64,000 nucleotides of DNA from Nitrospirota bacterium (GCA_004296885.1 SCVN01000018.1:2980-66979); one strand, 5' to 3'; counted from the stretch's first letter, positions 2,552 through 47,723 are shown. Translations and numbers: made by a program. Notes: generated by a model not told the origin, from the letters alone.

Positions 2552-2579
2552 GCTACAGCAAGAGGTGTCCGGCTGTAGC
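2552..2579. promoter_or_regulatory. Inverted repeat GCTACAGC-N12-GCTGTAGC (CTGTAGC element, palindromic form)
   Basis: Perfect 8-bp arms at 2552-2559 and 2572-2579. The right arm centre is 96 nt upstream of the GG of the sigma-54-type promoter at 2671. Confidence 0.5.
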
Positions 2580-2670
2580 GCAACTCCTCCCTCCGGAACA
2601 GCAACCCTCCATAACTTTACGAACCGGCTGATTTGACTGCAAAAATTCTTCTCCGTCCATCTCCTGCTCC

Positions 2671-2686
2671 TGGCTCCCTCCTTGCT
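2671..2686 (+). promoter_or_regulatory. sigma-54-type -24/-12 promoter candidate upstream of ftsH
   Basis: TGGCTC-CCTCC-TTGCT, an exact TGGC-N7-TTGC match, 124 nt upstream of ATG 2810. Confidence 0.45.
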
Positions 2687-2809
2687 TTCTGAGCATGACG
2701 TCGAGTGTGAATCTTTCCCGTCCGGGTCGCCGTGTTCCGGCATCACGGCGCCTTGCTCGGGTTCGGCAGGTGGCGGTTCCGCGAGCAGTTCGAATGGGAA
2801 GGCGCGGCC

Positions 2810-4612
2810 ATGAATAAGAAGCTCTCTTTTTCGATCTGGTACATCTTCCTCGCGATCTGGGCGGTGATCCTCGTGCACGATTTCATCCATACCCTGCAGA
2901 AGATCGAAGAATTGCCCTACAGTCAGTTCAAGACCCTGGTCGCGACCGGCAAAGTGGCGGAGGTCTCCGTGAGCGGCCAGATCCTGACCGGCAAACTCAA
3001 ACCGGAGGGGGAATCGAAAGAGCCGCGGTTGTTCAGGACGATCCGCGTCGAAGATCCGGACCTGGTCAAGGAACTCACCCAGCATGGCGTCACCTTCACC
3101 GGCGTCATCGAAACCACGTTCTGGCGCGATGTGCTCTCATGGGTCGTGCCGGTCGTCCTCTTTGTCGGCGTCTGGTTCTTCATCTTTCAGCGACTGGGCC
3201 AAGCTCAAGGCGGCTTCATGCGGGTGGGCCAGTCCAAAGCGAAGATCTACATGGAGAAAGACATCAAAGTGACCTTCGCCGACGTCGCCGGGGTGGATGA
3301 AGCCAAGGAAGAATTGCAGGAGGTGATCGAGTTCCTGAAGACCCCGGAGAAGTTCACCAAGCTGGGAGGGAAGATTCCGAAGGGTATTCTCTTGGTCGGC
3401 CCGCCGGGAACCGGGAAAACGCTGCTGGCGCGCGCCGTCGCCGGCGAAGCCGCCGTGCCGTTTTTCAGCATCAGCGGGTCCGAGTTTGTCGAGATGTTCG
3501 TCGGGGTCGGCGCGGCCCGCGTGCGCGATCTGTTCGAACAGGCCAAGCTCAAGGCGCCCTGCATCATCTTCATCGATGAACTCGACGCACTGGGCAAGGC
3601 CCGCGGGATGGGGCCCCTGGCTCATGAGGAGCGCGAGCAGACGCTCAATCAATTGCTGGTCGAGATGGACGGCTTCGATCCGCGCATCGGGGTGATCCTG
3701 ATGGCCGCGACCAACAGGCCGGAGATCCTCGATCCGGCGCTGCTGCGCGCGGGCCGTTTCGACCGACACGTGTTGGTCGATCGACCGGACAAAGTCGGCC
3801 GCCTGGCGATCCTGCGCGTGCATGCCAAGCAGGTGGCGCTGGCCAGCGATGCCGACCTCGAGACGGTCGCCGGCATGACCCCTGGGTTCTCCGGCGCAGA
3901 CCTCGCCAACATCGTCAACGAAGCGGCGCTGCTCGCGGTCCGCCGCGGGAAGGATCAGGTGGGGCTCTCGGAACTGCAGGAAGCGGTCGAACGGGTGATC
4001 GCCGGACTGGAAAAGAAAAATCGCGTCCTGAACAAGATGGAGAAGGAGCGCGTGGCCTACCACGAAACCGGCCACGCGTTGGTGGCGCTCTCGCTGCCGG
4101 GAGGCGATCAGGTGCAGAAAATTTCCATCATCCCGCGCGGCATTGCCGCGCTCGGGTACACGCTTCAACTCCCGACGGAAGACCGGTTTCTCATGACCCA
4201 GTCCGAGTTGGAGAACAAGATCGCCGTGTTGTTGGGCGGACGAATCGCGGAGGAATTGGTTTTCGGCGAGGCCTCGACGGGCGCGCAAAACGATCTCGTC
4301 AAGGCGACTGATATCGCCAAGAGCATGGTCAAGGCCTATGGGATGAGCGAGAAGCTGGGGACCATCACGTTGGAGCGAGAACGGCAGCCGCAGTTCGTTC
4401 AGATTCAGGCCCCCCAAGAGAAAGGCGATTACTCGGAAGAGACCGCCCGGGAGATCGATTGCGAAGTGCGGCGGATCATCGACGAACAGTACGAACGGGT
4501 GAAGCAGCTCGTGGGCGAGAAGAAAGCCGCCCTTCAAGAAGGCGCGACGCTCTTGCTGGAACGGGAGGTCATCACCGGGAGCGATCTGAAGACCATTATG
4601 GACAAGGCGTAA
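2810..4612 (+). CDS. ftsH: ATP-dependent zinc metalloprotease FtsH
   Basis: N-terminal TM segments, AAA+ Walker [22 protein letters not shown] region and zinc motif HETGHAL. The ORF track starts at 2732, but ATG 2810 ([17 protein letters not shown]) fits the usual FtsH N-terminus. Confidence 0.95.
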
Positions 4613-4666
4613 GGGACTTGCCCGGGCTGTTCGGATAGCGCCGCGTCGACTCGAACCGGATCTGCA

Positions 4667-5812: not shown

Positions 5813-6587
<775 letters not shown>

Positions 6588-6603
<16 letters not shown>

Positions 6604-8218: not shown

Positions 8219-8372
8219 AAGCGAAGTAAAAGAGCCCCTGCGGACATGAAAGAGGTTTTCCAATCTCTTCCCGAGCGTCTGTCCCCACAGCGCCACCGTG
8301 ACACCTCTATGGAGAGCCGATCGCCGAGGGCCCTGTTCCGCTGTGGCGTCTCGCACTAGAGCGCCCTTGCCC

Positions 8373-8379
8373 CTGTAGC
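8373..8379 (+). promoter_or_regulatory. CTGTAGC upstream element
   Basis: Exact heptamer in intergenic DNA, centred 95 nt upstream of the GG of the promoter candidate at 8470. Confidence 0.4.
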
Positions 8380-8469
8380 ATTTCGCTCCACTGATCTCTC
8401 AGCCCTTCGCCATCCTCGCCAAACCCCTTGTTTCGATGGCACTGTTCCGCGATACACTGCCTCCATCCT

Positions 8470-8485
8470 TGGCATGTTCCTGGCA
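8470..8485 (+). promoter_or_regulatory. sigma-54-type -24/-12 promoter candidate
   Basis: TGGCAT-GTTCC-TGGCA with GG and GC 12 nt apart, 58 nt upstream of ATG 8543. Confidence 0.45.
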
Positions 8486-9671: not shown

Positions 9672-9693
9672 CCCCTGAGGAAGACGAGCGAAC

Positions 9694-12462: not shown

Positions 12463-12678
12463 CCAACTGACGGGGCCGAGACCGGCGGTAGGATGCCGAA
12501 ACTCCACTGTGGCATCTTGCGCCAGGATCGGTTGAATCCTTGCTGCCTTTCTCTGCATCTCACCCAATAACGACAACGGGCCTGCCTCAACCATAGGAGA
12601 AAAGAGGTCTTTTCGCGCCTCGCCCGGGCATCATTCTGGCATTGATTCACTGTCACCGCCGAACAGGGAGGTACCGGC

Positions 12679-13083
12679 ATGAGTCTCACGGTCACGTTCA
12701 AAGGCGGAACCAAATTTACCGTCGGCAGCGGGAAGCACCGGGTCGTCACCGATCAACCGATTGAGGACGGCGGAACCGACGAAGGCATGAGTCCGGTGGA
12801 ACTGTTCATCGGCTCGCTGGCCAGCTGTGTCGGCTATTTCGTGACCCGGTACTGTGCGCGGCACGGCATCCCCTCTGAAGGTTTCACCATCGAGACGGAT
12901 TGGTCCATGGCCGAGCAGCCTCATCGGGTCGGGTCTGTGGAGATGTCATTGCACCTGCCGACAGCCCTCACCCAGGCCCAGCAAGAACGGCTGCTCAAGG
13001 TCGCCCACGGCTGCACGGTCCACCAGTCGCTGGCGGTCCCGCCCAACGTTGCGATTACCTTGCTCACGGCGGATCAGTCATGA
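12679..13083 (+). CDS. OsmC/Ohr-family protein
   Basis: 134 aa with EGMSPVELFIGSLASCVGYF and C-terminal HGCTVHQSL, both typical of OsmC. Confidence 0.85.
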   Translation: MSLTVTFKGGTKFTVGSGKHRVVTDQPIEDGGTDEGMSPVELFIGSLASCVGYFVTRYCARHGIPSEGFTIETDWSMAEQPHRVGSVEMSLHLPTALTQAQQERLLKVAHGCTVHQSLAVPPNVAITLLTADQS

Positions 13084-18127: not shown

Positions 18128-18229
18128 GGACTGCCCCGGCGCAACGCCGTGATATCGCAGACACGAGCCCTCCTCTTCTTTGCTTTGCTTCCCTGCCCTG
18201 TCGCTTTCCGCCACAACCTCCTCCGCCAT

Positions 18230-18236
18230 CTGTAGC
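18230..18236 (+). promoter_or_regulatory. CTGTAGC upstream element
   Basis: Context CCGCCAT-CTGTAGCAGG resembles CCGCCACG-CTGTAGCAGG at 47709-47726. Centred 95 nt upstream of the GG at 18328. Confidence 0.45.
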
Positions 18237-18326
18237 AGGCCTCCTCCCTGCTCCTGGCCCTTTCCGAGACTCAGAATTAACCCATTGAGACACAAGCTAA
18301 ATTAGGCGATCGGTCGATGGCTCTTG

Positions 18327-18342
18327 TGGCATCGTGTTTGCT
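18327..18342 (+). promoter_or_regulatory. sigma-54-type -24/-12 promoter candidate upstream of the POR operon
   Basis: TGGCAT-CGTGT-TTGCT, a near-consensus match, 28 nt upstream of ATG 18370. Confidence 0.55.
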
Positions 18343-22013: not shown

Positions 22014-22480
22014 ACCGCTCATTGTTGTACGAGGTCGTGGTCGTGGTCGGATTGTGCGGAGCCCTGGCCGGCTGCGCACCGGTCGTCCAGGAGCACCCCC
22101 CGGTTACGACCCCCGATGCCAGAACGGCGCTCGGGCTGACGGCGCAGGACAGTCGCGAGCATCGCGCCGTGATGCTCCAACATCTGGAGACAGTGCAGGC
22201 GATCGTGGCGGCGCTGGCCGAGGAGGACTTCGTGCGGGCCCAAGGGCTCACCGAGGCCCATCTCGGATTTTTCATGCACCGGCAGGCGATGGCCGGACAA
22301 CATCCTGAATCCTTCCCACCGGCCTACCACGACCTCGCCATGGCCCATCACGAAGCGGCTGAAGCCCTGGCCAGGACGATGCCCTCGCGCGATCTGAAAC
22401 AGATTCTTCCGAAGCTCGACGGGGTGTTGAAAGCCTGCGTCGCCTGCCATCTCTCATTCAAAGTCAACGAGAGAAGTTAG
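22010..22480 (+). CDS. Lipoprotein cytochrome with C-terminal CXXCH (c-prime-like)
   Basis: Lipobox LAGC and CVACH 11 residues from the C-terminus. Paralogous in layout to 8899-9375. ATGA overlap with the preceding gene. Confidence 0.7.
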   Translation: MNRSLLYEVVVVVGLCGALAGCAPVVQEHPPVTTPDARTALGLTAQDSREHRAVMLQHLETVQAIVAALAEEDFVRAQGLTEAHLGFFMHRQAMAGQHPESFPPAYHDLAMAHHEAAEALARTMPSRDLKQILPKLDGVLKACVACHLSFKVNERS

Positions 22481-25254
22481 ACGGATCCAGCAGGAGAGGC
22501 GTTCAGAACCGGCTCCACCCTGATCCTGGCATCCACGATCCGGCACCCTTCGCCCGGCGGCAACGCGAAGAGAGGGTTCAGGTCCACCTCCGTGATCTCG
22601 GGAATCTCCTCGACCAACCGCGACACCCGCAGCAACACCTCTTCGATCGCCTCGAGATCGGCCGGGGGATGGCCACGGTAGCCTTCGAGGAGCGGGAAGC
22701 CGCGGATGCTCCGGACCATCTCGCGCGCGTCCCGGTCGGTCAGGGGCGTGATGCGAAAACAGACATCGCGGAGGATTTCGACGTGGATGCCGCCGAGCCC
22801 GAACGCGATCAACGGTCCGAACAGCGGGTCATGCGTCACCCCCACCATCAGCTCGACGCCCCCCGATACCATCGGCTGCACGATCACCCCGTCCATGGCA
22901 TCAAGCCGGTTGTCCAGGGCCAGCCGGTCGCGGATCCGCGCAAAGGCCCGGCGCACCGCATCCATGTCCTGCAGGTTCAGTATGACCCCGCCGACTTCCG
23001 TTTTGTGGACCAACGTGCGTGAGGCCAGCTTCATTGCCACAGGAAATCCCACGTGCCGGGCCATCGACGCCGCTTCGTCCATCGTCCGCGCCAGCCCGCC
23101 CGGCGCCACCGGCAGCCGGATGGACGTCAGCACGACCTTCGTTTCTTCGGCCGATAGCCATCCGATGCCCCGCTCCTCAATGGCGCGGCGGCACAACCGC
23201 CGCACCGGCTCCAGATCCAGATCGTCGAAATCGGGGATCATGCCGAGCGGCTGGGCCCGCCAGTCCGCATAGGCCGCCGTTTTGCTCAGCACCAGCGCCG
23301 GCGTCTCGGGAAACTCGTAGACGGGGATGCTGAGGCGGGCCAGTTCGTCCGGGCCGGACGTCTGTTCCTCCTCCCCCATCCAGCAGACCAGCACCGGGAG
23401 GAGCGGGGCCTGGTCCGTTCCCGATGCGACTCCGTCCCGGATCGCCTGCGCCAGGCTCCGTGGATCGAGCGCCCCCGCCGAGACGTACAAGACGATCAGC
23501 GCATCCACTTCGCCGGACCCGGCGATGACCGTCAGCGCCTGCCGAAAATCTTCCGCGCGAGCCGAGGCGATCAAATCCACGGGATTCGCGAGTCCCGCCG
23601 TCGGAGGGAGGAACGAAGCCAATTGCGCCTGCGTCCGCTCGGAAAACGCGGATACCAGGAGACCGCCCGCTTCGCACCGATCGGCGCAGAGGATGGCCGG
23701 GCCGCCCGCGTTGGTCACGATCGCCACCCGCCGGCCCTTCGGGAGCGGCTGCGCACCCAAGGCCACGGCCAACGCAAACAGTTCTTCCAACGTGTCGGCG
23801 CGAATCACGCCGGCCTGGTGGAACAGGGCATCCACGGCCACATCGCTAGCGGCCAACGCGGCCGTATGGGACCCGGCGGCACGGCGACCGGCGCTGGTCC
23901 GGCCCCCCTTGACCGCCACGATGGGCTTGCGCCTCGCCACGCGCCGCGCGATGCGCGCGAAGCGGCGAGGGTTGCCGAAGGACTCCTGGTAGAGGAGGAT
24001 CACGTCGGTGCGCGGGTCTTCTTCCCAATATTGCAGGAGGTCGTTGCTGGAGACATCGGCCTTGTTGCCGACGCTCACGAAGGTGGAGAGGCCGAGGCGC
24101 AGCCGCTTCGCCGCCGCCAGGACGGCCAGTCCCAGCGCACCGCTTTGCGAGGCCATGGCCACGCCCCCGGCCGGCGGGAAGATCGGGGAGAACGAGGCGT
24201 TGAGACGGACCGACGGATCGGTATTGATCAGGCCCAGGCAATTGGGTCCGACCATCCGCATGCCGGAGCCCCGCACGGCGCCGAGCAGCCGGTCTTGCCG
24301 CGCCCGGCCTTCGGCTCCCACTTCGGCAAAGCCGGCCGTGATCACGACGAGGGCCCGGACGCCTCGTGCCGCACAGTCCTCCACGACGACCGGCAGGGCC
24401 GGCGGCGGCACGGCGATCACCGCCAGATCGACCGGGTCGGGAATCGCCCGCACGGAGGGATAGGCCTGGAAGCCGGCGATGGTCTGCGTCTGAGGGTTGA
24501 CGGGATACAGGGCCCCGGCAAACGAAGCGGCGCGCAGCGCCGCCAGCAGCCGCCCGCCGATGGAAGCCGGGTCCCGCGAGGCGCCGACCACTGCCACGGA
24601 GCGGGGATGGAAAAAGGGACGCAGGGACGCAGTCGTCGCGAGACGCTCCCGCAGCTCCGACCGTTCCACTCCGGCCGCCGTAGACAGCAACGACAACTCC
24701 ACCTCCATGTCACCGCCCTCCAGTGCCTCGTGCGTCGTAAAGCCGGACTCCCGAAACACCTCGCGCATGGCCAGGTTGTCCGCATGCGTCACGGCCCAGA
24801 GCCGGACGTACCCCTGCCGAACGGCCAGCAGCGCCAGCTGCTCCAGCAGCAGCGTGCCCAACCCCTTGCCATGCAAGGCGCCATCCACCGCCATCGCGAC
24901 CTCCGCAGTCCGGTCGTCTTTGGCCATATAGGACCCGGCAGCGATGATACATGGGGCGCCCTCGACTGTGCGCGTGACCAGCAGCGTCATCAACGCATGG
25001 GGATCGGAGGTGTCGCAAAGGGCGGCGATCAGGGAAGGCGAGGGGACAGTTTCAGAAAAAAACCGATGACGCTTGGCTTCAGACGAGAGACGATCGACGA
25101 AAGCTTGCAGACTGGGTTGATCGTCGGGCCCGGCCGGTCGAATGAGAGCCGTCGTGCCGTCCCGAAGGATCAGGTATCCAGCACCGGCCGGTCTCCAGCC
25201 AAAGTCCTGCAAGGAAGGGGGAAGAAAGAGCGGACGCACATGAGAAGGAGCCAT
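22477..25254 (-). CDS. GNAT acetyltransferase fused to an NDP-forming acetyl-CoA synthetase-like protein (Pat-like, GNAT N-terminal)
   Basis: 925 aa. N-terminal GNAT (HGKGLGTLLLEQL), then a CoA-binding domain, a succinyl-CoA-synthetase-like domain with GSHTAALA, and a C-terminal ATP-grasp. Confidence 0.85.
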   Translation of the reverse strand: MAPSHVRPLFLPPSLQDFGWRPAGAGYLILRDGTTALIRPAGPDDQPSLQAFVDRLSSEAKRHRFFSETVPSPSLIAALCDTSDPHALMTLLVTRTVEGAPCIIAAGSYMAKDDRTAEVAMAVDGALHGKGLGTLLLEQLALLAVRQGYVRLWAVTHADNLAMREVFRESGFTTHEALEGGDMEVELSLLSTAAGVERSELRERLATTASLRPFFHPRSVAVVGASRDPASIGGRLLAALRAASFAGALYPVNPQTQTIAGFQAYPSVRAIPDPVDLAVIAVPPPALPVVVEDCAARGVRALVVITAGFAEVGAEGRARQDRLLGAVRGSGMRMVGPNCLGLINTDPSVRLNASFSPIFPPAGGVAMASQSGALGLAVLAAAKRLRLGLSTFVSVGNKADVSSNDLLQYWEEDPRTDVILLYQESFGNPRRFARIARRVARRKPIVAVKGGRTSAGRRAAGSHTAALAASDVAVDALFHQAGVIRADTLEELFALAVALGAQPLPKGRRVAIVTNAGGPAILCADRCEAGGLLVSAFSERTQAQLASFLPPTAGLANPVDLIASARAEDFRQALTVIAGSGEVDALIVLYVSAGALDPRSLAQAIRDGVASGTDQAPLLPVLVCWMGEEEQTSGPDELARLSIPVYEFPETPALVLSKTAAYADWRAQPLGMIPDFDDLDLEPVRRLCRRAIEERGIGWLSAEETKVVLTSIRLPVAPGGLARTMDEAASMARHVGFPVAMKLASRTLVHKTEVGGVILNLQDMDAVRRAFARIRDRLALDNRLDAMDGVIVQPMVSGGVELMVGVTHDPLFGPLIAFGLGGIHVEILRDVCFRITPLTDRDAREMVRSIRGFPLLEGYRGHPPADLEAIEEVLLRVSRLVEEIPEITEVDLNPLFALPPGEGCRIVDARIRVEPVLNASPAGSV

Positions 25255-25398
25255 CCGTCACATTCTCCGCACAGAGCTATGTCGTACCGCCGTTGCGAAA
25301 CGGATCCACGCGGTGAGGATGCTTGCGACCGCTCTTTTTCCAATCATTCCAGGTACTGGCGGCGCTCTTCATCCTTCGGTTCATAGGCAGAGACCTTA

Positions 25399-26376: not shown

Positions 26377-26596
26377 AGGACCGGTTTTGGTTGGACGATC
26401 GGCACAAGACCGAGGCGTTCCAAGACAGCCCTCCCACCGACTGGCGTCTGTTCCTGCCCGTGTACGTTCCCGAAGTCGTCGCCAGCCGTGCGCGCCATTG
26501 TACACGGCTCCTTGACCGGAGTACAGCCAACGCTCTAGTTGGTGCAACGTAAGGGGTGAGGGGTAGATGGGCGGCCGGAGCACGACGGCGAGACGT

Positions 26597-26962
26597 TCAG
26601 CTCACGGCATCGAAGGGCGCCATCAGGCGAATATAGGAGACCACATCTTTGATCTGCTCGTCCGTCAACCGACCACGCCAGCCATGCATGGGCGAAAACA
26701 GCACCCCATGGGTCACGGCAACGAGCAGTTCCCAGTCCGACTTGGACCGGGATTTCAGCGCCTGCAGGTTGGTCGGCGCCACGATCAAATAAGGCGCATC
26801 GGGCCCCTTGCCGTCCAGCGCCAGCCCGTGGCAGCGGAGGCAATGCTGTTCATAGACAGCCTGGCCGCTCTTTGTATTGCCCCGAAAATCCTGGGCGGCC
26901 ACCCAGGAATGGCCGAGGAGGATCGCGACGAAACCGAGAACCAGCGTGTGTGTCGTCTTCAT
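26597..26962 (-). CDS. Class I c-type cytochrome (monoheme)
   Basis: Signal peptide and CLRCHGLALDGKG. RBS AAGGAGAG lies before ATG 26962. Confidence 0.8.
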   Translation of the reverse strand: MKTTHTLVLGFVAILLGHSWVAAQDFRGNTKSGQAVYEQHCLRCHGLALDGKGPDAPYLIVAPTNLQALKSRSKSDWELLVAVTHGVLFSPMHGWRGRLTDEQIKDVVSYIRLMAPFDAVS

Positions 26963-27003
26963 GAGTCTCTCCTTATGATGGACATAGACCGTGCCCGCGT
27001 CTC

Positions 27004-28728
27004 TTAGGCGGTCAGTTCCGCATAATGAGCGGCGACGGTTTGCCTGAACGCTTCCCGAAGTTCTTCCCCCTGCAATTGCCGGTTGGAGAGCTTCCGCAGC
27101 CGCGCGGCCAGCTCGGCGTCCCCCAACGCGCCCTCCACCCACCGCACCAGATCCTGGCGCTGATCGTGATATTCCAAGCTCGCGATGGGAAGCGACGGCA
27201 AGAGGTGCAACAACTCATAGAGGCTGGCCGCCTCCTTGCCGAGATCCGTCCGCGCGTCGCGGAATCGAAAGCGTTTCTCCGGCGGCAGCGGCACGTCCAG
27301 ATACTTGTAGTGGTGGCGCGTGTGGGGCACCCGCCGGATCGCCGGACGCAACCGCACCACCGGCCCGCCGCAAAGCAGCGCCGAGCCTGGCGCCAGCGCC
27401 GCCATGTTCACGCTACCCGTGCCGCAGGTTTTGCAATGGCGCTGCACGGCTTGCACCGACTCCGGTTCGGTCATGCGCGTCAACAGACAGTGGTGCATCT
27501 CCCGGAGCACGGCCTGATCCAACCGATCAGGTCTGTAGGAGACAAAGGCCCAGCCTCCTCCCTCCAAGAGGGGCAGGATGCCCGCCGCCACATCCCCATC
27601 GGCCGACAACAGCGATTGCTGCGCCTCTTCCAACACGATCCAATGGGGTCGATACTTGCGCTCCCGTAAGGGGCGCAGCACCCGGACCAGTTCGGCGATA
27701 TAGGCATTGCGCTGCGGAACCGGATACCGGCTCAGATCCAGCACCACCGAGACGCCGGCCGCGTCCAGCAGCGACACGACCGCGGGCGGAGCCGGCAAGG
27801 AGGCCGCATCGCCCTCTAGCGCCAGAAACCGGGGCAGGACCTGCAACCCCCGAAAGTCCCCCTCCGGGTCGATCAGGAGCACCTGATAGCCTTCATGGTG
27901 CAGCCCTTCGGCCAGCAGGCCTACCATCCAGGATTTGCCGGTCCCCGAGTCGCCGAACACCCCCAAGTTCCGCCCGGCCAGGCGCGAGGCAGGGAGCGTC
28001 ACGTCGCGCCCTTCATCGTCCTGCCCCAGAAGAATAGGCCGGTCTCTCCGGAGCGGCATATCGAGATAGCGCCCGGCCAAGGGATAGCGCTCCAGCACCT
28101 CCAGCACTCCGGCCGGCCCGGGCTTGCCCGCCACCACATCGGCCATCTCGCACACGGCCGGGACCGCGTCTTGTACGGCCACGGCGACTTCGGCCAGGGT
28201 CAACATGGACAGGTCGTTCTCCGCGTCTCCGAAGGCGGCCAGATTCCTGGCCGAGAAACCGCACAAAGCCAGCAGCCGCTCCAGACCCGTCCCCTTGGAC
28301 GTTCCCGGCGGCACAACCATCAGGGCCCCCTTATTGTATTCGACCGAGGCTTCGCCCCCGTGGGCGCCGAGCACCTGCCAGACAGCCTGTTCGTGCGGGC
28401 ACCATGTGGCGGCAATCGCCAGACCCCGCTCGAACGGAATACCGGCGTCGGTCAACGCCTTCAGGAGGCGCGGATGGAGTTGGCCGAAGGGCAGGTACAA
28501 CTCGCCGCTCGCCCGGTGCGCCAGCACCGCGCCGTTCTCCCAGACGATGCCGGTGAACAGCTCGGCCAGCGGCCCCAGCGACACCGAATCGAATCGCCGA
28601 CCCGTGACAAGAAAGAGGGCATGCCCCGAATCGCGGCACCGCTCCAGCGCCGACGCCAGCTCGACCGGGACCTTCCCCTCCACCGCGAGCGTCCCGTCGA
28701 AATCGAAGGCCATCACGCGGCGATCCAT
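27004..28728 (-). CDS. HAD-IIB (Cof-type) phosphatase domain fused to a HerA/FtsK-like P-loop ATPase domain
   Basis: HAD motifs FDFDGTL, VTGR and GDAENDL in residues 1-230. Then Walker A GVFGDSGTGKSW, LLIDPEGDF and Walker B-like HWIVLEEAQ, followed by an unassigned ~150-aa C-terminus. Confidence 0.75.
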   Translation of the reverse strand: MDRRVMAFDFDGTLAVEGKVPVELASALERCRDSGHALFLVTGRRFDSVSLGPLAELFTGIVWENGAVLAHRASGELYLPFGQLHPRLLKALTDAGIPFERGLAIAATWCPHEQAVWQVLGAHGGEASVEYNKGALMVVPPGTSKGTGLERLLALCGFSARNLAAFGDAENDLSMLTLAEVAVAVQDAVPAVCEMADVVAGKPGPAGVLEVLERYPLAGRYLDMPLRRDRPILLGQDDEGRDVTLPASRLAGRNLGVFGDSGTGKSWMVGLLAEGLHHEGYQVLLIDPEGDFRGLQVLPRFLALEGDAASLPAPPAVVSLLDAAGVSVVLDLSRYPVPQRNAYIAELVRVLRPLRERKYRPHWIVLEEAQQSLLSADGDVAAGILPLLEGGGWAFVSYRPDRLDQAVLREMHHCLLTRMTEPESVQAVQRHCKTCGTGSVNMAALAPGSALLCGGPVVRLRPAIRRVPHTRHHYKYLDVPLPPEKRFRFRDARTDLGKEAASLYELLHLLPSLPIASLEYHDQRQDLVRWVEGALGDAELAARLRKLSNRQLQGEELREAFRQTVAAHYAELTA

Positions 28729-28785
28729 GCCTGCCTTTCGATGCAGCGCGCCGGTCGGTTAGACCGTCGATCCGTTCGGCTCGGA

Positions 28786-29253
28786 TCAGATTCCCACCAG
28801 AACCCGGTGACCGCAAATCTTTTTCAGGGTATCCAAGACCTCCTCGCAGGAGAGAGCTTGTGCCCCTTTCCACTTGGCCTCTCCGGCCTGCAACACGAGG
28901 TCGTTGATGGAGAGAACTCCCCGGAGCATGCTCCCTTGATCCACCACCGGCAGGCGCCGCACTTTCTCGGTCGCCATGGTCCTGAGTGCCGCCCTGGCAT
29001 CGTCATCCTCGGCGCAGGTATAGGCCTTGCCCGTCATCGTCTCCCACACGGTGATGTAGGAGGCGGTCCGTCCCTTCGTGGCGACGGCCATGCAGATGTC
29101 CCGATCCGTGATCATGCCGATTACCTTACCGTCATGGTCCACGACCGGCAGCGAGCCGCAGTCGAAGTTCCACATGGACTCGGCGGCCTCGGCCAGGTTG
29201 GTGTGCGGGTGGCAGGAATGGACGACGGTCGCCATCACGTCACGGACTTTCAT
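28786..29253 (-). CDS. CBS-pair domain protein
   Basis: 155 aa with MKVRDVM...GSLPVVDHDGKVIGMITDRDI and RRLPVVDQGSMLRGVLSINDL. Confidence 0.85.
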   Translation of the reverse strand: MKVRDVMATVVHSCHPHTNLAEAAESMWNFDCGSLPVVDHDGKVIGMITDRDICMAVATKGRTASYITVWETMTGKAYTCAEDDDARAALRTMATEKVRRLPVVDQGSMLRGVLSINDLVLQAGEAKWKGAQALSCEEVLDTLKKICGHRVLVGI

Positions 29254-29296
29254 GTCACAACTCCTTTCGCGGTCTGGCTCAGCCGCACATCCCTGT

Positions 29297-29809
29297 TCAG
29301 CGCTCCCACCGGACGCGGATGAGCTGTTGATTGCGGGAATACCGTAAGGTGAGCGTCCCGTGATAGGCATGGCGCAACGCCTCGCCGATGCCTTGCGCCA
29401 AGTGCATGTCGGTGGTGGTCACTTCCACGCTGCTGTTTTTCTGATCGACCTTCATGACCCGCGAGAGGGGATGTTCCGCCTTGGCCTTCGCCTCTTCATT
29501 ATGGATGAGTCCCAGGATCTCGTCCCGATGCGCGGTGAGGAACGGCCCCTGCAGGGTCAGAATCCCGGATGGGTTCTGGTCGCTGATGCGCTCACAGGCC
29601 GGACAGATCGCCGCATGGGCTTTGGCCGGCCTGATCCCCCAGATCCAATGTCCCTTGTGAAACACCGCCCCGCATCGCGGACAGGCGGTCGGTTCCCGGA
29701 ACTTACCGCGGGCTTGGTACACGTCATGCCGGGCCTCTTGAATCGTCCGATCCCTGCGCGCCACCCGGACTACCGGATTGCCGTTGGACTTACCCGCTCG
29801 TACTGCCAT
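29297..29809 (-). CDS. Zinc-ribbon protein, NMD3-like (I recall this family labelled BCAM0308 family)
   Basis: CPRCG...CPACE motifs and a C-terminal TTDMHLAQGIGEALRHAYHG. The family name is from memory, not searched. Confidence 0.6.
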   Translation of the reverse strand: MAVRAGKSNGNPVVRVARRDRTIQEARHDVYQARGKFREPTACPRCGAVFHKGHWIWGIRPAKAHAAICPACERISDQNPSGILTLQGPFLTAHRDEILGLIHNEEAKAKAEHPLSRVMKVDQKNSSVEVTTTDMHLAQGIGEALRHAYHGTLTLRYSRNQQLIRVRWER

Positions 29810-29851
29810 ACAAAGGCTCCTCCTGAAAGGCTTCGGTTGAACTCTGTTACG

Positions 29852-30526
29852 TTACGCGCGCGATGCGCGCGGCCCTTCGCGCAACGATGCAGCCGCGGCC
29901 TGTAAATATCGGACGACCGCCGCATCTTCGACTTGCGCGAACTCCTCATAGTGGTTGCCGACGGCGAAGAACGGCTCCGGCGTCATCAGACAGACCAACG
30001 CGTCGACCTCCCGCTGCACCCGCAGCAGGGTCTCCCGTGGCCCGACCGGAATGGCCGCCACCAGTCGATCCGGCTTGAGCTTCTTCACCGCCGCGATCGA
30101 GGCAAAAAAAGTGGACCCCGTCGCAATCCCGTCATCCACCAACACAATCGTCTTGCCGGTCATCTGCGGCAGAGACCGGCCGCCGCGGTAAAGGGCCTGC
30201 CGCCGGGTAATTTCCTCTTCCTGGACTCGAATCGGCTTGTTGAGGTCCTCGCGGCCCAAGCCGAGATCCCGCAGCCCTTCCCGATTCAGATAGAGCGCGC
30301 CGCCTTCCGCCACTGCTCCAACGGCATATTCCGGGTTGCCGGGCGCACCCAGCTTGCGGACAATCAACACATCCAGCGGCAGGTGCAGCGCCAGGCTCAA
30401 CATATAGCCTACCGGCACCCCGCCACGGGGCAGCGCCAGGATCAACGCCTGGGGGTCGTCCCGATAGGCGCTTAACCGTTCCGCCAATAATCGCCCCGCT
30501 TCTTCCCGATCCCGCAAGATGAGCAC
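29852..30526 (-). CDS. Phosphoribosyltransferase-family protein
   Basis: Motifs ILALPRGGVPVG and PRPP-binding IVLVDDGIATGST. Confidence 0.85.
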   Translation of the reverse strand: MLILRDREEAGRLLAERLSAYRDDPQALILALPRGGVPVGYMLSLALHLPLDVLIVRKLGAPGNPEYAVGAVAEGGALYLNREGLRDLGLGREDLNKPIRVQEEEITRRQALYRGGRSLPQMTGKTIVLVDDGIATGSTFFASIAAVKKLKPDRLVAAIPVGPRETLLRVQREVDALVCLMTPEPFFAVGNHYEEFAQVEDAAVVRYLQAAAASLREGPRASRA

Positions 30527-30619
30527 GCCACGTCCTCCTGTTCGGCCCTCACCGGTTCGGGATCCGCCCCGCCGGACATTCCAATGCGGACCGGAAAGAC
30601 GGCTGGGAGGACCGGCCGC

Positions 30620-31075
30620 TCAGGCCACCTTGACCTCGATGCTCTTCGGCTTGGCTTTTTCCGACTTCGGCAGGTGCACCTTGAGCAAGCCGTCCTTGCA
30701 ATCGGCGGACACCTTGGACGCATCCGCATCTTCCGGCAAGGTGAAACTGCGCATGAAACTGCCATAGGCTCGTTCCACGCGGTGGTATTTCTTGCCCTTC
30801 TCTTCTTTCTCGTATTTCCGTTCCCCCGTGATCGTCAGCACATCCTCGTCGACGGTCAGCTTGATGTCTTCTTTTTTCACTTCTGGCAACTCGGCCTTGA
30901 TCAGATATTCCTTGTCGTCCTCGGTGATGTCCACGAGCGGGGCCCACTCGGCCACCGTCATGGCCTCCTCTTTGTCGCCGTTCTTGCGGACCGGCGCGCG
31001 GCCGAACATCGTGTTCAACCGACTCTGCATATCCTCCAGTTCCTTGAACGGATCCCAACGTGTGATGGCATTCAT
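30620..31075 (-). CDS. Hsp20/alpha-crystallin small heat-shock protein
   Basis: 151 aa with the alpha-crystallin domain DITEDDKEYLIKAELPEVKKEDIKLTVDEDVLTITGER...SFTLPEDAD...DGLLKVHLPK. Confidence 0.92.
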   Translation of the reverse strand: MNAITRWDPFKELEDMQSRLNTMFGRAPVRKNGDKEEAMTVAEWAPLVDITEDDKEYLIKAELPEVKKEDIKLTVDEDVLTITGERKYEKEEKGKKYHRVERAYGSFMRSFTLPEDADASKVSADCKDGLLKVHLPKSEKAKPKSIEVKVA

Positions 31076-31661: not shown

Positions 31662-31677
31662 TGCATGCCCGATGCCA
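31662..31677 (-). promoter_or_regulatory. sigma-54-type -24/-12 promoter candidate for the hsp20-containing operon
   Basis: The minus strand reads TGGCAT-CGGGC-ATGCA. Start codon lies about 50 nt downstream. ACAG-N15-CTGT and CTGTGG-N7-CCACAG inverted repeats lie 94-131 nt upstream (31771-31808). Confidence 0.5.
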
Positions 31678-31860
31678 GGACGAGCGGAAAGATCGGTTTT
31701 GTAACCCATTGAAACATAGCCTTGTTCTTGTGTTCTCTCGGAAGCGCATAAACCGGCGCGGCATTTCAGGACAGTGGGATAAACGGATACTGTGGACTCA
31801 CGCCACAGACTAATGATCATCGGGAGAGATTCGGCGAAGAATCCGGTCCGGGAGCGCTAA

Positions 31861-32415: not shown

Positions 32416-32715
32416 CTACCTGGCGGTTTTCAAGGCTTTCGTCAACGTCTGCACGACTGTAACGCGGGCATAGTACTTGCCGTTTGCCTCCACCACCGTC
32501 CAGGGGGCCCAGGTGGTGCTGGTCTTCTCCAGCATCTCCTCCACCGCTTCGTAGTACCGATCCCACTTCGCACAGTTCCGCTCATCTTTCCCAATGCGCT
32601 TGTAGGAACGGAAAGGGGCCACGCGGGCCTTGAACCGACGCAACTGCTCGTCCTGGAACCAGGCGCCACCTTGGCTCCAGAGCTGAATCGGTGCATGCCG
32701 GATGCCAGCGAGCAA
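32416..32715 (-). pseudogene. Polyphosphate kinase 2 (PPK2) C-terminal remnant
   Basis: The ORF tail ...DEQLRRFKAR..FRSYK....KWDRYYEAVEEMLEKTSTTWAPWTVVEAN.K.YARV.VVQT..KAL.TA. matches the last ~85 aa of the intact PPK2 at 35396-36100. The Walker-A half is missing. A 64-nt stretch, 32508-32571, is identical to 35488-35551. Confidence 0.7.
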
Positions 32716-32989: not shown

Positions 32990-33005
32990 TGGCATCCTCC
33001 ATGCA
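32990..33005 (+). promoter_or_regulatory. sigma-54-type -24/-12 promoter candidate upstream of SulP
   Basis: TGGCAT-CCTCC-ATGCA, 150 nt upstream of ATG 33155. Confidence 0.4.
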
Positions 33006-35395: not shown

Positions 35396-36100
35396 CTACT
35401 TGGCCGTCTCCAGGGCCTTTGCAATCGTCTGCACGACTTTGACGCGGGCATAGTGCTTGTCGTTGGCCTCCACCACCGTCCAGGGCGCCCAGGTGGTGCT
35501 GGTCTTCTCCAGCATCTCCTCCACCGCTTCGTAGTACCGATCCCACTTCGCGCGGTTCCGCCAATCTTCCTCGGTGAGCTTGTAGGAACGGAAGGGGTCC
35601 AGCTCTCGAGCCTTGAACCGGCGCAACTGCTCGTCCTGGTCGATATGCAGCCAGAACTTGACCACGACCGTTCCGAAATTGACGAGCTGCCACTCGAATT
35701 CGTTGATCTCCCGATAGGCCCGCTTCCATTCCTGCTCGGTGCAGAACCCCTCCACCCGCTCCACCAACACGCGTCCGTAGTGGGACCGGTCGAAGATGGC
35801 CAGCTGGCCCTGTGGCGCCAGGGCTTTCCAGAACCGCCAGAGATGGTGATGATGGGCCTCCGCTCCGGCCGGAGCCCCGAAGGTATTCACGTTGAACCCG
35901 CGCGGGTCGAGCGTTTCGGTCACCCGCTTGATGCTCCCTCCCTTGCCGGCCGAATCCCAGCCCTCGAAGACGGCCAAGGCCATTCGCTTTTCGTTGAACA
36001 AGCGCAGGGATTCGTTCCGGAGCCGCACCTGCCAACTCTTGATCTCGCCCCAGTATTTCTTTTCAGGCAGTTTTTTCCCGAGATCGACCCGTTCGAGCAT
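35396..36100 (-). CDS. ppk2: Polyphosphate kinase 2 (single-domain PPK2)
   Basis: Walker A FEGWDSAGKGG, FDRSHYGRVLVERV and lid region. RBS AAGGAGAAG lies before ATG 36100. Confidence 0.9.
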   Translation of the reverse strand: MLERVDLGKKLPEKKYWGEIKSWQVRLRNESLRLFNEKRMALAVFEGWDSAGKGGSIKRVTETLDPRGFNVNTFGAPAGAEAHHHHLWRFWKALAPQGQLAIFDRSHYGRVLVERVEGFCTEQEWKRAYREINEFEWQLVNFGTVVVKFWLHIDQDEQLRRFKARELDPFRSYKLTEEDWRNRAKWDRYYEAVEEMLEKTSTTWAPWTVVEANDKHYARVKVVQTIAKALETAK

Positions 36101-36908
36101 CTCTCTTCTCCTTTGCCGATGCGGCCGGCTTAGCCCCCCGCCGAGCGCGCGCTTCACGAGACAGTTGGCTGCGCCCGATTTCCACTCCATGAGCCTTCCG
36201 CCAGGCCAGCGCCTCTTCCATCGCCTTCACCAACGTTTCAAAGACCTTGATTTCTGAAAATCGGCCGTCCGTCGCCTCGACGATGGTCCATGGCGCGTAG
36301 GGCGCATCCGTCTTGGCCAGCATTTCTTCGGTCGCGAGGAGGTACTTGTCGTAATCCCGATGGTGTTGCCAGTCCCACTTGGTGACCCGCCAGCTCTCGA
36401 ATTTGTCCTTCTCCAGCTTCAGGAACCGGCGCTTCTGCTCTTTCTTCGAGATGTGCAGAAAGAATTTGACCATGACCGCCCCGTCCTCGGCCAGCTGTCG
36501 CTCGAACTGGCTGATCTCCTCGAAAGCCCGCTGCCAGACTTTCTTCGGCACCATCTTGGCAACCCGTTCGACCAGCACCCGGCCGTACCAAGAGCGGTCA
36601 AACAAGGCGATCTCACCGTCTTGCGGGAGGTGGACCCAGTAGCGCCAGAGAAACGGCTTGGCCTCTTCTTCGCTCGTGGGAGGGCGGGCCGGGTGGACCT
36701 TGAACCCGCGCGGATCCAGCCTTTCGAGGAGCCGCGAGATGATCCGCCCCTTGCCCGCCGCGTCCCACCCCTCGAACACGATGACGGTGGGAATCTCCGC
36801 CGCCTTGCATTGATACTGCAGAAGACGGAGCTTCTCGCGGAGCGGCGGCGCTTTCTTCTTGTAGCCATCTTTGGCCAACGAATGGGCCAGGTCGATCGTC
36901 TCCAGCAT
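36063..36908 (-). CDS. ppk2: Polyphosphate kinase 2 (second copy, basic C-terminal tail)
   Basis: Motifs FEGWDAAGKGR and FDRSWYGRVLVERV. Overlaps the next PPK2 start by 38 nt. Confidence 0.9.
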   Translation of the reverse strand: MLETIDLAHSLAKDGYKKKAPPLREKLRLLQYQCKAAEIPTVIVFEGWDAAGKGRIISRLLERLDPRGFKVHPARPPTSEEEAKPFLWRYWVHLPQDGEIALFDRSWYGRVLVERVAKMVPKKVWQRAFEEISQFERQLAEDGAVMVKFFLHISKKEQKRRFLKLEKDKFESWRVTKWDWQHHRDYDKYLLATEEMLAKTDAPYAPWTIVEATDGRFSEIKVFETLVKAMEEALAWRKAHGVEIGRSQLSREARARRGAKPAASAKEKRDARTGRSREKTA

Positions 36909-41254: not shown

Positions 41255-43030
<1,776 letters not shown>

Positions 43031-43151
43031 TTACCCTCTGTTGGTGCAAAGGCCAGACCAAAGGAGAGTCGGCCTGCTTCCGGCAGGCGCGAGAACAAAT
43101 CCTCAAGAAATCAGACCGATGGGCGCAGTCGTCCCACAGCCCTCCATCGGC

Positions 43152-43158
43152 CTGTAGC
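43152..43158 (+). promoter_or_regulatory. CTGTAGC upstream element
   Basis: CCTGTAGCATT is the same 11-mer as at 8372-8382. Centred 83 nt upstream of the GG at 43238. Confidence 0.35.
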
Positions 43159-43236
43159 ATTATTCATCAAGCCGGAGAACAGGTACGGGGAGAATCGCGT
43201 CAGGCCTTTACTCCTGCCGCCCCTCCTCGCAGGCCG

Positions 43237-43252
43237 TGGCCGGTTACCAGCA
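43237..43252 (+). promoter_or_regulatory. sigma-54-type -24/-12 promoter candidate (weaker -12)
   Basis: TGGCCG-GTTAC-CAGCA with correct GG/GC spacing, 105 nt upstream of ATG 43357. Confidence 0.3.
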
Positions 43253-45643: not shown

Positions 45644-45768
45644 AACAGAAGACATCCTTCAAGAACATGCCGAAACGCCAGGCCAAGCAATTCGCCGAAC
45701 TCAAGCAGGCGAGCGAACGGGAGCGGATCGTCAAGAAGAAGACCCGCCCACAGGCTCCGGGCCGATGA
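45640..45768 (+). CDS. Possible 42-aa highly basic small protein
   Basis: MKQKTSFKNMPKRQAKQFAELKQASERERIVKKKTRPQAPGR. ATGA overlap with the arcC stop, genome-typical codons, and it ends 9 nt before polX. Confidence 0.45.
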   Translation: MKQKTSFKNMPKRQAKQFAELKQASERERIVKKKTRPQAPGR

Positions 45769-45777
45769 GCGATTGCC

Positions 45778-47502
45778 ATGCCGGTCCATAACGCCGATAT
45801 CGCCGCCAAGTTGGACGAGATCGCCGACTTGCTGGAAATCGAGGACGCCAATCCATTCCGTATTCGCGCCTACCGCAACGCGGCGCGCACCCTGCGCGAC
45901 TTGAGCCGCGAGGTGACCAGCCTGCTGGCCCAAGGCGAGGACCTGACCGAGCTGCCCGGCATCGGCAAGGACCTGGCCGGCAAGATCGAGGACATCGTCA
46001 AGACCGGCACCACCGCCATGCTCGACGAGCACCGGAGAGCCGTGCCGCCCACGCTCACCGAACTGCTCAAGATTCCGGGGCTCGGCCCCAAGCGGGTCAA
46101 GACGCTCAGCCGTGCGCTCGGCATTCGGACGCTCAAGGACTTGCATCACGCCGCCCGTGCCGGCCGCATCAACGCGCTGGCAGGATTCGGCGAAAAACTG
46201 GAGCGGCAGATTCTGCACGAACTGGAGGCGCGGGCCGGCGCCGAGGCCCGGTTCAAGCTTGCCACGGCGGCCCAGTATGCCGAGGCGCTGGTGGCCTACC
46301 TCAAGGACTCGCCGGGCATCGGCCGGGTCGTGGCGGCCGGCAGCTATCGACGGGGCAGAGAGACGATCGGCGATCTGGACATCCTGGCGACGGCCCGCGC
46401 CGACAGCCCGGTGATGGACCGGTTCGTCTCCTACGACGAAGTGGAAGAAGTACTGGCCCGCGGTGGCACCAGGGCCACCGTCCGTCTCGCTTGCAACCTG
46501 CACGTGGACTTGCGGGTGGTCGGCGAGGAGAGCTATGGAGCCGCGCTCCAGTATTTCACGGGGAGCAAAGCGCACAACATCGTGCTGCGCCAGCTGGCGC
46601 AGCAACGGGGACTCAAGGTCAACGAATACGGGGTCTTCAAAGGAGAGCAGTACGTGGCGGGGCAGACGGAGGAATCCGTCTATGCCGCGGTGGGGCTGCC
46701 CTGGATTCCGCCGGAGCTGCGGGAAAATCGCGGCGAGTTCGACGCGGCACGGGAGGGTCGGCTCCCGCAGCTCGTGCAGCTCGGCGACCTACGAGGCGAC
46801 CTGCATGCCCACACCAACGCGACGGACGGCCGGAACAGCCTCAGGGAGATGGCCCGGGCGGCTCGCGAGCGCGGCTTCGAATACCTGGCGGTGTGCGACC
46901 ATTCCCGACGACTCACCATGACGCACGGCCTGGACGCCAAACGGTTGCTGGCCCAACTGGACGCGATCGACCGGCTGAACGAGACCCGACCGGGCATTAC
47001 CCTGCTCAAGGGGATCGAGGTGGACATTCTGGAGGATGGCCGGCTGGACCTGCCGGACGGCGTGCTCGGCCGGCTGGACTTGGTCGTGGCCGCCGTGCAC
47101 AGCCACTTCAACCTGCCGCGCGAGCGGCAGACCGAGCGGATTCTGCGGGCCATGGACCGGCCGCATTTCACGATCCTGGCCCATCCGAGCGGGCGCCTGA
47201 TTCAGGAACGGGAACCCTACGACGTGGACCTGCCGCGCGTGATCCGACAGGCGCGCGAGCGGCAATGTTTTCTGGAAGTCAACGCGCACCCGGAGCGGCT
47301 GGATCTTGCCGATGCCTATTGCCGGATGGCGAAGGAAGAGGGAGTGCTGGTCAGCATCAACTCCGACGCCCACAGCGTGCTCGACTTCGAGCACCTTCGG
47401 TTCGGCGTCGGACAGGCCCGGCGTGGATGGCTGGAACCGGCCGATGTGCTGAACAGCAGACCGCTGAGCGCCTTGCGCCCGCTGCTCCAGCGAACGATGT
47501 AA
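45778..47502 (+). CDS. polX: Family X DNA polymerase with C-terminal PHP domain
   Basis: N-terminal HhH region (NPFRIRAYRNAAR), catalytic GSYRRGRETIGDLDIL and PHP motif DLHAHTNATDG. Confidence 0.92.
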   Translation: MPVHNADIAAKLDEIADLLEIEDANPFRIRAYRNAARTLRDLSREVTSLLAQGEDLTELPGIGKDLAGKIEDIVKTGTTAMLDEHRRAVPPTLTELLKIPGLGPKRVKTLSRALGIRTLKDLHHAARAGRINALAGFGEKLERQILHELEARAGAEARFKLATAAQYAEALVAYLKDSPGIGRVVAAGSYRRGRETIGDLDILATARADSPVMDRFVSYDEVEEVLARGGTRATVRLACNLHVDLRVVGEESYGAALQYFTGSKAHNIVLRQLAQQRGLKVNEYGVFKGEQYVAGQTEESVYAAVGLPWIPPELRENRGEFDAAREGRLPQLVQLGDLRGDLHAHTNATDGRNSLREMARAARERGFEYLAVCDHSRRLTMTHGLDAKRLLAQLDAIDRLNETRPGITLLKGIEVDILEDGRLDLPDGVLGRLDLVVAAVHSHFNLPRERQTERILRAMDRPHFTILAHPSGRLIQEREPYDVDLPRVIRQARERQCFLEVNAHPERLDLADAYCRMAKEEGVLVSINSDAHSVLDFEHLRFGVGQARRGWLEPADVLNSRPLSALRPLLQRTM

Positions 47503-47696
47503 CGACCTGTCGGAAGCAACGCGCCACGGGGACGGTAGCATCGGGGGGGCCGGCACGTTCGACGAGATCGTGCTGTCCGGCATCGTCGCCGCCTATCTCG
47601 CTTGAACCGCCGGAAGGAGGCTGCCAGTCCCGACTCAGGCAAGCGCACGTCTGTGCCTCTGCCAGATCGGCTCTTCTTTTTCCTGTGTAGTCTTTC

Positions 47697-47723
47697 GCTA
47701 CAGTTTCTCCGCCACGCTGTAGC
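47697..47723. promoter_or_regulatory. Inverted repeat GCTACAG-N13-CTGTAGC (CTGTAGC element, palindromic form)
   Basis: 7-bp arms at 47697-47703 and 47717-47723. The right arm centre is 97 nt upstream of the GG at 47817. Confidence 0.5.

Follow-up and report, generated by a model that had tools for sequence, protein, structure and literature searches.

At the glnAp2 promoter of enteric bacteria, NtrC occupies two dyad dimer sites that are about 32 bp apart and lie roughly 100–140 bp upstream of the −24/−12 promoter, where cooperative dimers nucleate the active oligomer. The upstream activating sequence of NifA, TGT-N10-ACA, is found at a distance of 80–150 bp upstream from sigma-54 promoters, an IHF site often lies between the two, and in rhizobia NifA is oxygen responsive. 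For Nitrospira and its relatives, which in soils, waters and treatment plants account for most nitrite oxidation as well as for complete nitrification, we know of almost nothing that has been established about gene regulation. The subject of the present study is a tandem-dyad element in a stretch of 64,000 nucleotides (GCA_004296885.1 SCVN01000018.1:2980-66979; the whole stretch is called the window, with positions counted from its first nucleotide) of a Nitrospirota bacterium that is uncultured and does not belong to the genus Nitrospira. The element was noticed as a heptamer, CTGTAGC, that recurs in front of sigma-54-type promoters, and the heptamers are probably part of a predicted upstream activating sequence, i.e. 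the enhancer at which one of the bacterial enhancer-binding proteins (bEBPs) would act on these promoters.

The heptamer is arm 3 of an element of about 50 bp that has four arms and two sites. Two imperfect palindromes of 19 bp stand in tandem, each with the consensus CTGTrGC-N5-GCyACAG, i.e. TGT-N11-ACA. Site A is formed by arms 1 and 2 and site B by arms 3 and 4, with 13–15 bp between the sites and their centres 32–34 bp apart, or about three helical turns. The canonical layout in the window is CTGTnGC-N5-GCyACAG, then N13-15, then CTGTAGC-N5-nCnnCAr, and the inner arms 2 and 3 are the best kept. When the 28 arm positions were scored over the whole window on both strands, just 10 positions reached a score of 20 or more, all belonging to the elements in front of ftsH, a pair of c-type cytochrome genes, a three-gene POR operon and a bPH–protease operon, or to a tandem pair at 63908–63960. 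The same scoring brings six elements, those of ftsH, the cytochrome pair, POR, bPH, hsp20 and OsmC, into one register: arm 3 is followed after 90–92 nt by the −24 TGGC at all six promoters, and in this genome the distance to the −24 GG is about 90 nt for the centre of site B and 122 nt for that of site A. Which arm is weak differs between promoters. The window POR element has good arms 1–3, the POR element of Candidatus Nitrospira kreftii has good arms 1, 2 and 4 and a poor arm 3, and in the element at 63908 the perfect arms are 2 and 4; because different arms are weak at different promoters, the four-arm reading is supported. The composite of element and promoter, GCYACA-N15/16-TGTAGC-N88..94-TGGC-N7-TTGC, has three matches in the window against 0.00 in shuffled sequences. 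No other shared upstream element was visible at these promoters, either in a view anchored on the GG or in an alignment of the window sites.

The likeness to glnAp2 is thus one of architecture, with tandem dyads three turns apart upstream of a −24/−12 promoter, whereas the dyads themselves differ: NtrC sites read TGCACC-N5-GGTGCA (17 bp) and the sites described here CTGTAGC-N5-GCTACAG (19 bp), so that they do not have the form of NtrC sites. The genes differ as well, since the NtrC regulon serves nitrogen assimilation and the genes found here belong to stress responses, respiration and CO2 fixation. With the NifA sequence the element shares a TGT...ACA dyad upstream of sigma-54 promoters, but the spacer is N11 instead of N10 at all sites, the arms are 7 bp long, the dyad is duplicated in tandem and there are no nif genes. 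For Desulfovibrio vulgaris, where bEBP regulons were predicted by comparative genomics, the palindromic binding sites are typically within about 100 nt of sigma-54 promoters and most bEBP genes are co-localised with few target operons (PMC4641369), in contrast to the single motif, the many dispersed operons and the lack of a linked bEBP gene in the present case.

All 11 copies of CTGTAGC that had been counted by eye in the original prediction are present (1272−, 2552−, 2573+, 8373+, 18230+, 38940−, 43152+, 47697−, 47717+, 63920− and 63954−), as compared to 2.46 ± 1.60 copies expected on both strands from dinucleotide-preserving shuffles of the window (100 trials; maximum 7). Nine are intergenic, as proposed, and two are in coding DNA (a PSP1 gene and a transketolase-like gene); the intergenic share of the window, put at about 10% in that prediction, is 13.2% in the gene map used here, which is based on GC3-biased choice of open reading frames (ORFs) and on Pfam. 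The corresponding binomial P is about 5e-7, but the nine copies represent only 7 loci and are not independent. With the first G of the −24 GG as reference point, the heptamer centre is indeed 96 (ftsH), 95 (cytochrome pair), 95 (POR) and 97 nt (bPH/protease) away. The palindromes GCTACAGC-N12-GCTGTAGC at 2552–2579 and GCTACAG-N13-CTGTAGC at 47697–47723, and the flank CTCCGCCA..CTGTAGCAGG common to the POR and bPH/protease sites, are also as described. Of two related cores that had been suggested, the one at the hsp20 operon is an element in the canonical register; the one at the bactofilin operon has a four-arm score of 13/28, which is background.

Promoters were located with a matrix that is our own approximation of the published sigma-54 consensus. 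Strong intergenic −24/−12 promoters were found at 2671, 8470, 18327, 47816, 31677−, 32707−, 32990+, 43060−, 53266− and 57220+. The −24 GG and −12 GC elements (TGGCAC-N5-TTGC-like) have exact spacing, with 13.4–17.3 bits at ftsH, the cytochrome pair, POR and bPH and 13.5 bits at hsp20. The OsmC promoter, which had been overlooked, probably belongs to the set, as suggested by the register of the element in front of it. The positions of all features are collected in Table 1. For the tandem pair near the window end, the expected promoter would be at about 64040, past the end of the window, and by eye the minus side is without a promoter.

Table 1 Four-arm elements, sigma-54-type promoters and related features of the window (gap, number of nucleotides between arm 3 and the −24 TGGC)
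Feature	Position	Strand	Sequence	Score or strength	Remarks
ftsH-mla enhancer (predicted)	2540–2591	+	CTGTGGT-cttct-GCTACAG (2540–2558), 14 nt, CTGTAGC-gcaac-TCCTCCC (2573–2591)	21/28	Gap 91 nt
ftsH promoter	2671–2686	+	TGGCTCCCTCCTTGCT	13.4 bits	ftsH start at about 2810, followed by MlaE/F/D; Pfam FtsH, Mla
Cytochrome c pair enhancer (predicted)	8341–8391	+	CTGTGGC-gtctc-GCACTAG, 13 nt, CTGTAGC-atttc-GCTCCAC	22/28	Highest score in the window
Cytochrome c pair promoter	8470–8485	+	TGGCATGTTCCTGGCA	13.7 bits	Gap 90 nt; Pfam cytochrome c
OsmC enhancer (predicted)	12507–12558	+	Site A CTGTGGC-atctt-GCGCCAG; site B degenerate	19	Probable weaker member; canonical register
OsmC promoter	12637	+	TGGCATTGATTCACT		Gap 90 nt; −12 element not GC; OsmC gene 12679–13083 (Pfam)
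POR enhancer (predicted)	18198–18248	+	CTGTCGC-tttcc-GCCACAA, 13 nt, CTGTAGC-aggcc-TCCTCCC	20	
IHF-like A/T-rich block	18277–18291	−	Reverse complement GTCTCAATGGGTTAA; perfect WATCAANNNNTTR in L002/L003		Between POR enhancer and promoter
POR gamma/delta-alpha-beta promoter	18327–18342	+	TGGCATCGTGTTTGCT	15.9 bits	Start 18370; invariant in POR orthologues
Zn-ribbon/hsp20 operon enhancer (predicted)	31756–31808	−	CTGTGGC-gtgag-TCCACAG, 15 nt, CTGTCCT-gaaat-GCCGCGC	18	Gap 90 nt
Promoter of operon ending in hsp20	31662–31677	−	TGGCATCGGGCATGCA	13.5 bits	hsp20 30620–31075; Pfam HSP20
Candidate acyl-CoA synthetase promoter	43045–43060	−	TGGTCTGGCCTTTGCA	12.6 bits	The two sites are about 20 bp closer than canonical
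Atypical dyad	43121–43170	.	GGGCGCA-gtcgt-CCCACAG, 12 nt, CTGTAGC-attat-TCATCAA	15–17	
Weak promoter of the original prediction	43237–43252	+	TGGCCGGTTACCAGCA	<9 bits	83 nt from heptamer
bPH-protease-protease-Usp enhancer (predicted)	47685–47735	+	GTGTAGT-ctttc-GCTACAG, 13 nt, CTGTAGC-aggtt-TTCCTGG	20	
bPH promoter	47816–47831	+	TGGCATTGCCCTTGCT	17.3 bits	Start 47873; Pfam bPH_2, Trypsin_2/FHA, Usp
NtrC-type bEBP gene	53464–54894	−			Receiver, Sigma54_activat AAA+ with GAFTGA, HTH_8 (Pfam, sequence)
Tandem pair near window end	63908–63960	+	Two GCTACAG copies as arms 2 and 4, 34 bp apart	21	

Conservation of the motif at orthologous promoters was found for POR and for bPH. The POR gamma/delta protein of the window has 100% identity to a protein from a metagenome-assembled genome of a 'Nitrospirae bacterium' and is about 70% identical to Nitrospira proteins. 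In relatives with 91% and 86% protein identity and with different upstream genes, a block of 45 nt around the heptamer is exactly conserved, and the distal arm is GCTACA, which makes a better palindrome than GCCACA of the window. The A/T-rich block between element and promoter, which by comparison with the IHF consensus may be an IHF-like site, is conserved at POR in relatives and is not clear at the other window promoters; an IHF or other bending site is frequent in this position of sigma-54 promoters with an enhancer, without being obligatory. In N. kreftii and another Nitrospirota genome, POR is part of a ytxH-dksA-POR operon with a sigma-54-type promoter; the centre of site A (CTGTCGC-ATTCT-GCGACAG) is located 123–124 nt from the GG, against 121–123 nt in the window, and in site B of N. 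kreftii arm 3 is degenerate and arm 4 perfect (GCCACAG). In the Nitrospira loci L091 (2300–3918) and L093 (2301–3918), genes for YtxH and a DksA/TraR-type zinc-finger protein precede the three-gene POR in one apparent operon, with a sigma-54-type promoter upstream of ytxH. The start of bPH in the window agrees with that of a 152-aa NCBI protein (100% identity). The bPH operon of a relative with 61% identity (L190) has the composite at a gap of 93 nt and a nearly identical promoter, TGGTATTGCCCTTGCT; in three other relatives, where the upstream genes are different, bPH has neither composite nor promoter.

A search for the strict composite in one representative genome per species (185,579 species) gave 85 stretches, and among the matches listed 49 of 80 are, according to their titles, from Nitrospira, Nitrospiraceae, Nitrospirales or Nitrospirota. 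Two further loci and one labelled Methylomirabilales resemble the Nitrospira-type matches, and the remaining matches, about 33, are scattered or coding and fit the estimate of about 30 chance matches. The composite is thus almost confined to Nitrospira and other Nitrospirota. Eight matches (L012, L025, L038, L042, L047, L048, L060 and L068) are inside one conserved coding region (GCCACATCGGGCACAAAGTAGGTGTAGC...) of Burkholderiales, Gallionella and Nitrotoga, which is an inherited chance match and not regulatory. In the Nitrospira loci, conservation extends beyond the hexamers used for selection: arm 1 keeps TG, a spacer reads CTTTY and arm 4 keeps RGA-TTCC-CA. Most composites in the Nitrospira genome loci, and about two thirds of those in the metagenomic loci, have a start codon and its ribosome-binding site no more than about 300 nt downstream.

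A second pattern, allowing 80–110 nt between arm 3 and the promoter, was used for metagenomes. The 92 matches have gaps of 80–89 nt (4), 90–92 nt (3), 93–95 nt (36), 96–100 nt (6), 101–103 nt (19) and 104–110 nt (24), where matches accumulate at 110 nt, the largest gap that the pattern allows. Spacing is constant for a given promoter family (dodecin 92–95 nt, most Usp-type promoters 101–102 nt, the window genome 90–92 nt). The fixed distance of about 95 bp originally proposed therefore holds within this genome and within promoter families, and not across the lineage, where gaps range from 90 to at least 110 nt. In an underpowered distance scan of the fetched Nitrospira loci, from which pre-selected sites were excluded, the matrix gave 120 hits, mostly coding, and 4 further copies of TGTAGC were found at 91–98 nt; three of these represent opposite-strand second promoters of selected dyads (L044, L045, L061) and one is a separate site in L076. 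Divergent sigma-54-type promoters share one dyad in L044, L045, L061 and L024, each being 85–98 nt from the nearer arm (85 nt for the opposite-strand promoter of L024); one side has a Usp gene in L044, L045 and L061 and an NTPase-like gene in L024.

We infer that each 19-bp site would bind one dimer of a single bEBP, and that two dimers would nucleate the active AAA+ oligomer, which could be carried by DNA looping to the sigma-54 holoenzyme in the closed complex at the −24/−12 promoter; ATP hydrolysis would then open the promoter. In this manner a single activator acting in trans, with its gene at another place, would jointly control genes that are dispersed. That a protein binds, which protein it is and to what signal it responds are all deduced here from DNA sequence. 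The presence in the window of a bEBP gene with the GAFTGA motif implies that the organism uses sigma-54 activators. In substance, the proposal of a dyad-symmetric bEBP site that is shared by sigma-54 promoters and defines a regulon is upheld by all computational tests that were run; in its details it has changed, the heptamer being arm 3 only.

Several observations weigh against such a mechanism, or restrict it. A tblastn search with the window bEBP against all fetched loci revealed no bEBP gene linked to composites in 50 Nitrospira loci of 8 kb, and only one in 90 metagenomic loci, at 2.8 kb from the composite (L181); this gene and a homologue in L001 were the exceptions in the search. An rpoN gene is not present in the 64-kb window, to which the search for it was confined. 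Since arms 2 and 3 plus the promoter served as selection criteria for the genome and metagenome sets, these sets cannot by themselves prove the association of enhancer and promoter, for which the independent support is the window itself and the taxonomic skew. Rigid helical phasing is not general, since gaps cluster at 93–95, 101–103 and 104–110 nt or more. The dyad at 43152 has the canonical layout on neither strand. Finally, Hsp20 and FtsH were unchanged in the low-oxygen proteome of Nitrospira marina (PMC8115632).

Identification of the regulator by adjacency was given up, as no bEBP gene adjoins the composites in the fetched loci. The bEBP of the window is no more than a weak candidate for the role of cognate regulator, because it adjoins a different inverted repeat. 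This is a perfect 10-bp repeat, GATATGCCTA-N20-TAGGCATATC at 57087–57126, about 100–130 nt upstream of the promoter CGGCATTCCCCTTGCT (57220–57235), in the divergent region beside an operon for a HAMP-HisKA kinase and the NtrC-type bEBP (57075–53464, minus strand); it is probably the enhancer of the local bEBP itself, distinct from the CTGTAGC element. With no bEBP gene linked to the composites and the window bEBP next to a different palindrome, the activator would be a single, unlinked and global one.

The lack of a linked bEBP gene would also fit another possibility, namely that the sites bind a factor of a different class, such as a CRP/FNR-type or other dimeric helix-turn-helix protein, which acts as repressor, anti-activator or co-factor, with the true enhancer elsewhere or several bEBPs involved. 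A Crp/Fnr-family gene (448–1170) and cNMP-binding domains are indeed encoded in the window, and TGT-N11-ACA is just one base longer than the TGT-N10-ACA of CRP or NifA-type sites. Nevertheless, the sites do not read as CRP or FNR boxes, since the TGTAG/CTACA pentamers are N7 apart as compared to N6 for CRP and N4 for FNR, and the site centres are 90 and 122 nt away from the −24 GG of sigma-54-type promoters, whereas CRP and FNR sites have their centres between about −41 and −93 relative to a sigma-70 promoter. Moreover, sigma-54 promoters need a bEBP to fire, no second shared upstream sequence is visible at the promoters found here, and tandem dyads about three turns apart, 90–125 nt upstream of −24/−12 and in register, constitute the classic enhancer layout. 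We therefore regard a factor other than a bEBP as quite unlikely.

An explanation of the element as a repeat or a structure, be it REP- or MITE-like, a cruciform or a hairpin in the RNA that terminates the preceding gene, is highly improbable. It could account for the 7–8 bp stems that 2552–2579 and 47697–47723 can form and for the position of every copy just 3′ of a preceding gene, but the arms vary without compensation (GCCACAA opposite CTGTAGC at POR, GCACTAG at the cytochrome pair), no T-run was seen by eye after the dyad, no tRNA genes or Rfam families were found, and the register is tied to the downstream promoter instead of the upstream stop codon. The element also occurs in divergent regions, where it serves both strands (L044, L045, L061). 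Between the motifs, the five window sites that were aligned (all but OsmC) are 20–41% identical without gaps, which is background; as this sequence is unrelated, the sites are not copies of a repeat or mobile element. That a common heptamer turned up by chance in the promoter regions of a GC-rich genome is practically excluded. The sample is a single window of 64 kb, but none of 100 shuffles had 11 copies or more, 0.00 composite matches are expected in the window, and about 50 matches in Nitrospirota stand against a chance expectation of about 30 over all bacteria; the shuffles, the composite expectation and the lineage distribution already refute this explanation.

According to Pfam, the predicted targets in the window are FtsH followed by MlaE/F/D, two c-type cytochromes, the three-gene POR, a 72-aa Zn-ribbon protein with Hsp20, and bPH with two proteases of the trypsin-like type and a tandem Usp; OsmC is a probable further one. 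In Nitrospira and the metagenomes, where functions were read from the sequences themselves, a predicted dodecin of 66 aa is the commonest target, next to Usp, CBS-domain proteins, a CBS-containing MgtE-like protein, POR, a 76-aa protein with Cys motifs, a cupredoxin-like protein and a secreted protein of 112 aa. At E <1e-3 the window contains no homologues of the dodecin, the single-domain Usp, the 112-aa secreted protein or the NTPase. By eye, the 76-aa gene, which in metagenomic loci is preceded by a perfect composite, has the same Cys motifs (CxxC ... WRCxICGK) as the 72-aa gene preceding hsp20 in the window.

Growth of N. marina at about 5.6 µM O2 was accompanied by higher levels of several UspA proteins (up to 263-fold), of CBS-domain proteins and of a POR with the four subunits of the anaerobic type, and induced Usp genes flank other induced clusters (PMC8115632). 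The overlap with these data and the composition of the gene set suggest that the regulon may serve survival under low oxygen or stress; this is the weakest step of the argument, and such a role is put forward with reserve. The combination of multiple Usp, alpha-crystallin/Hsp20 and CBS-domain proteins is reminiscent of the DosR/DevR regulon of Mycobacterium. This is a functional analogy only: there is no sequence relationship, and DosR is a LuxR-type response regulator that works at sigma-70-type promoters, whereas the promoters described here are of the sigma-54 type with a remote enhancer.

A region of the window (22477–31075) carries a stress/energy-state cluster with a fusion of GNAT and ADP-forming acyl-CoA synthetase (Pat-like), three CBS-domain proteins, a HAD-HerA-like ATPase, a phosphoribosyltransferase and Hsp20, with SulP-STAS-cNMP, PPK2 and Usp genes nearby, and looks like a survival island.

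No description of a sigma-54 enhancer in Nitrospira, or of this motif, was found in a literature of 8 million full texts, in agreement with the earlier remark that it is no recognised operator. As judged from the sequence patterns, the element is very probably a new enhancer motif that defines a regulon within the known sigma-54/bEBP mechanism; since that mechanism is known, its value is that of a new regulon and motif in a poorly tractable lineage and not of a new principle. As an enhancer that can be scanned for, it may be used to list the regulon in any Nitrospira genome or metagenome-assembled genome, and as bait for finding the regulator by DAP-seq or pull-down. It also offers a testable explanation for the co-induction of Usp, CBS and POR proteins by N. 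marina at low oxygen. A further extension, tentative and on balance somewhat unlikely, is that throughout Nitrospira and related Nitrospirota a single master bEBP, acting at the four-arm enhancer, drives a large dormancy/hypoxia regulon by way of sigma-54 promoters, including Usp, dodecin, CBS proteins, Hsp20, FtsH, OsmC, c-type cytochromes and POR of the oxygen-sensitive type. If true, this would be a sigma-54-based functional counterpart of DosR, and sigma-54 would be the low-oxygen/survival sigma factor of the main nitrite oxidisers and of comammox bacteria. For this extension, the number of sites within the single 64-kb window, 6–7, would point to dozens of targets in each genome.

The dyad at 43152 deserves separate mention. 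It is situated between divergent genes for an AMP-binding acyl-CoA synthetase (41255–43030, minus strand) and a COG2403-like protein (43357, plus strand). A stretch of 21 nt of this site, TGTAGCATTATTCATCAAGCC, is identical at the start of L185, a locus from a relative of which the bPH protein is 78% identical, and the site itself is real. The fifth promoter originally proposed, in front of COG2403-arcC-polX, has the distance of 83 nt that was claimed for it; it is weak and not conserved in L185, and is probably not functional. The minus-strand sequence in front of the acyl-CoA synthetase gene appears to be the better promoter. In L185 (194–5510, compared with 45778–47502 of the window), the genes for the COG2403-like protein, an amino-acid kinase, bPH, the FHA-protease and Usp are contiguous, whereas in the window a PolX gene is inserted after the kinase gene and a separate predicted enhancer and promoter precede bPH.

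The use of sigma-54 in this genome seems unusually heavy, with at least 10 intergenic sigma-54-type promoters in 64 kb, including those of housekeeping-type genes (ftsH, POR, cytochromes). Three promoters, at 31662–31677 (−), 32692–32707 (−) and 32990–33005 (+), have in common an unusual form, TGGCATC-N4-CATGCA, with CA before the −12 TGCA; among these three, only the one at 31662–31677 (−) is accompanied by the four-arm element. An ORF of 99 aa at 32416–32715 (−) matches only positions 146–223 of the PPK2 profile and, with a full-length PPK2 gene close by at 35396–36190 (−), may be a truncated PPK2 duplicate or a pseudogene.

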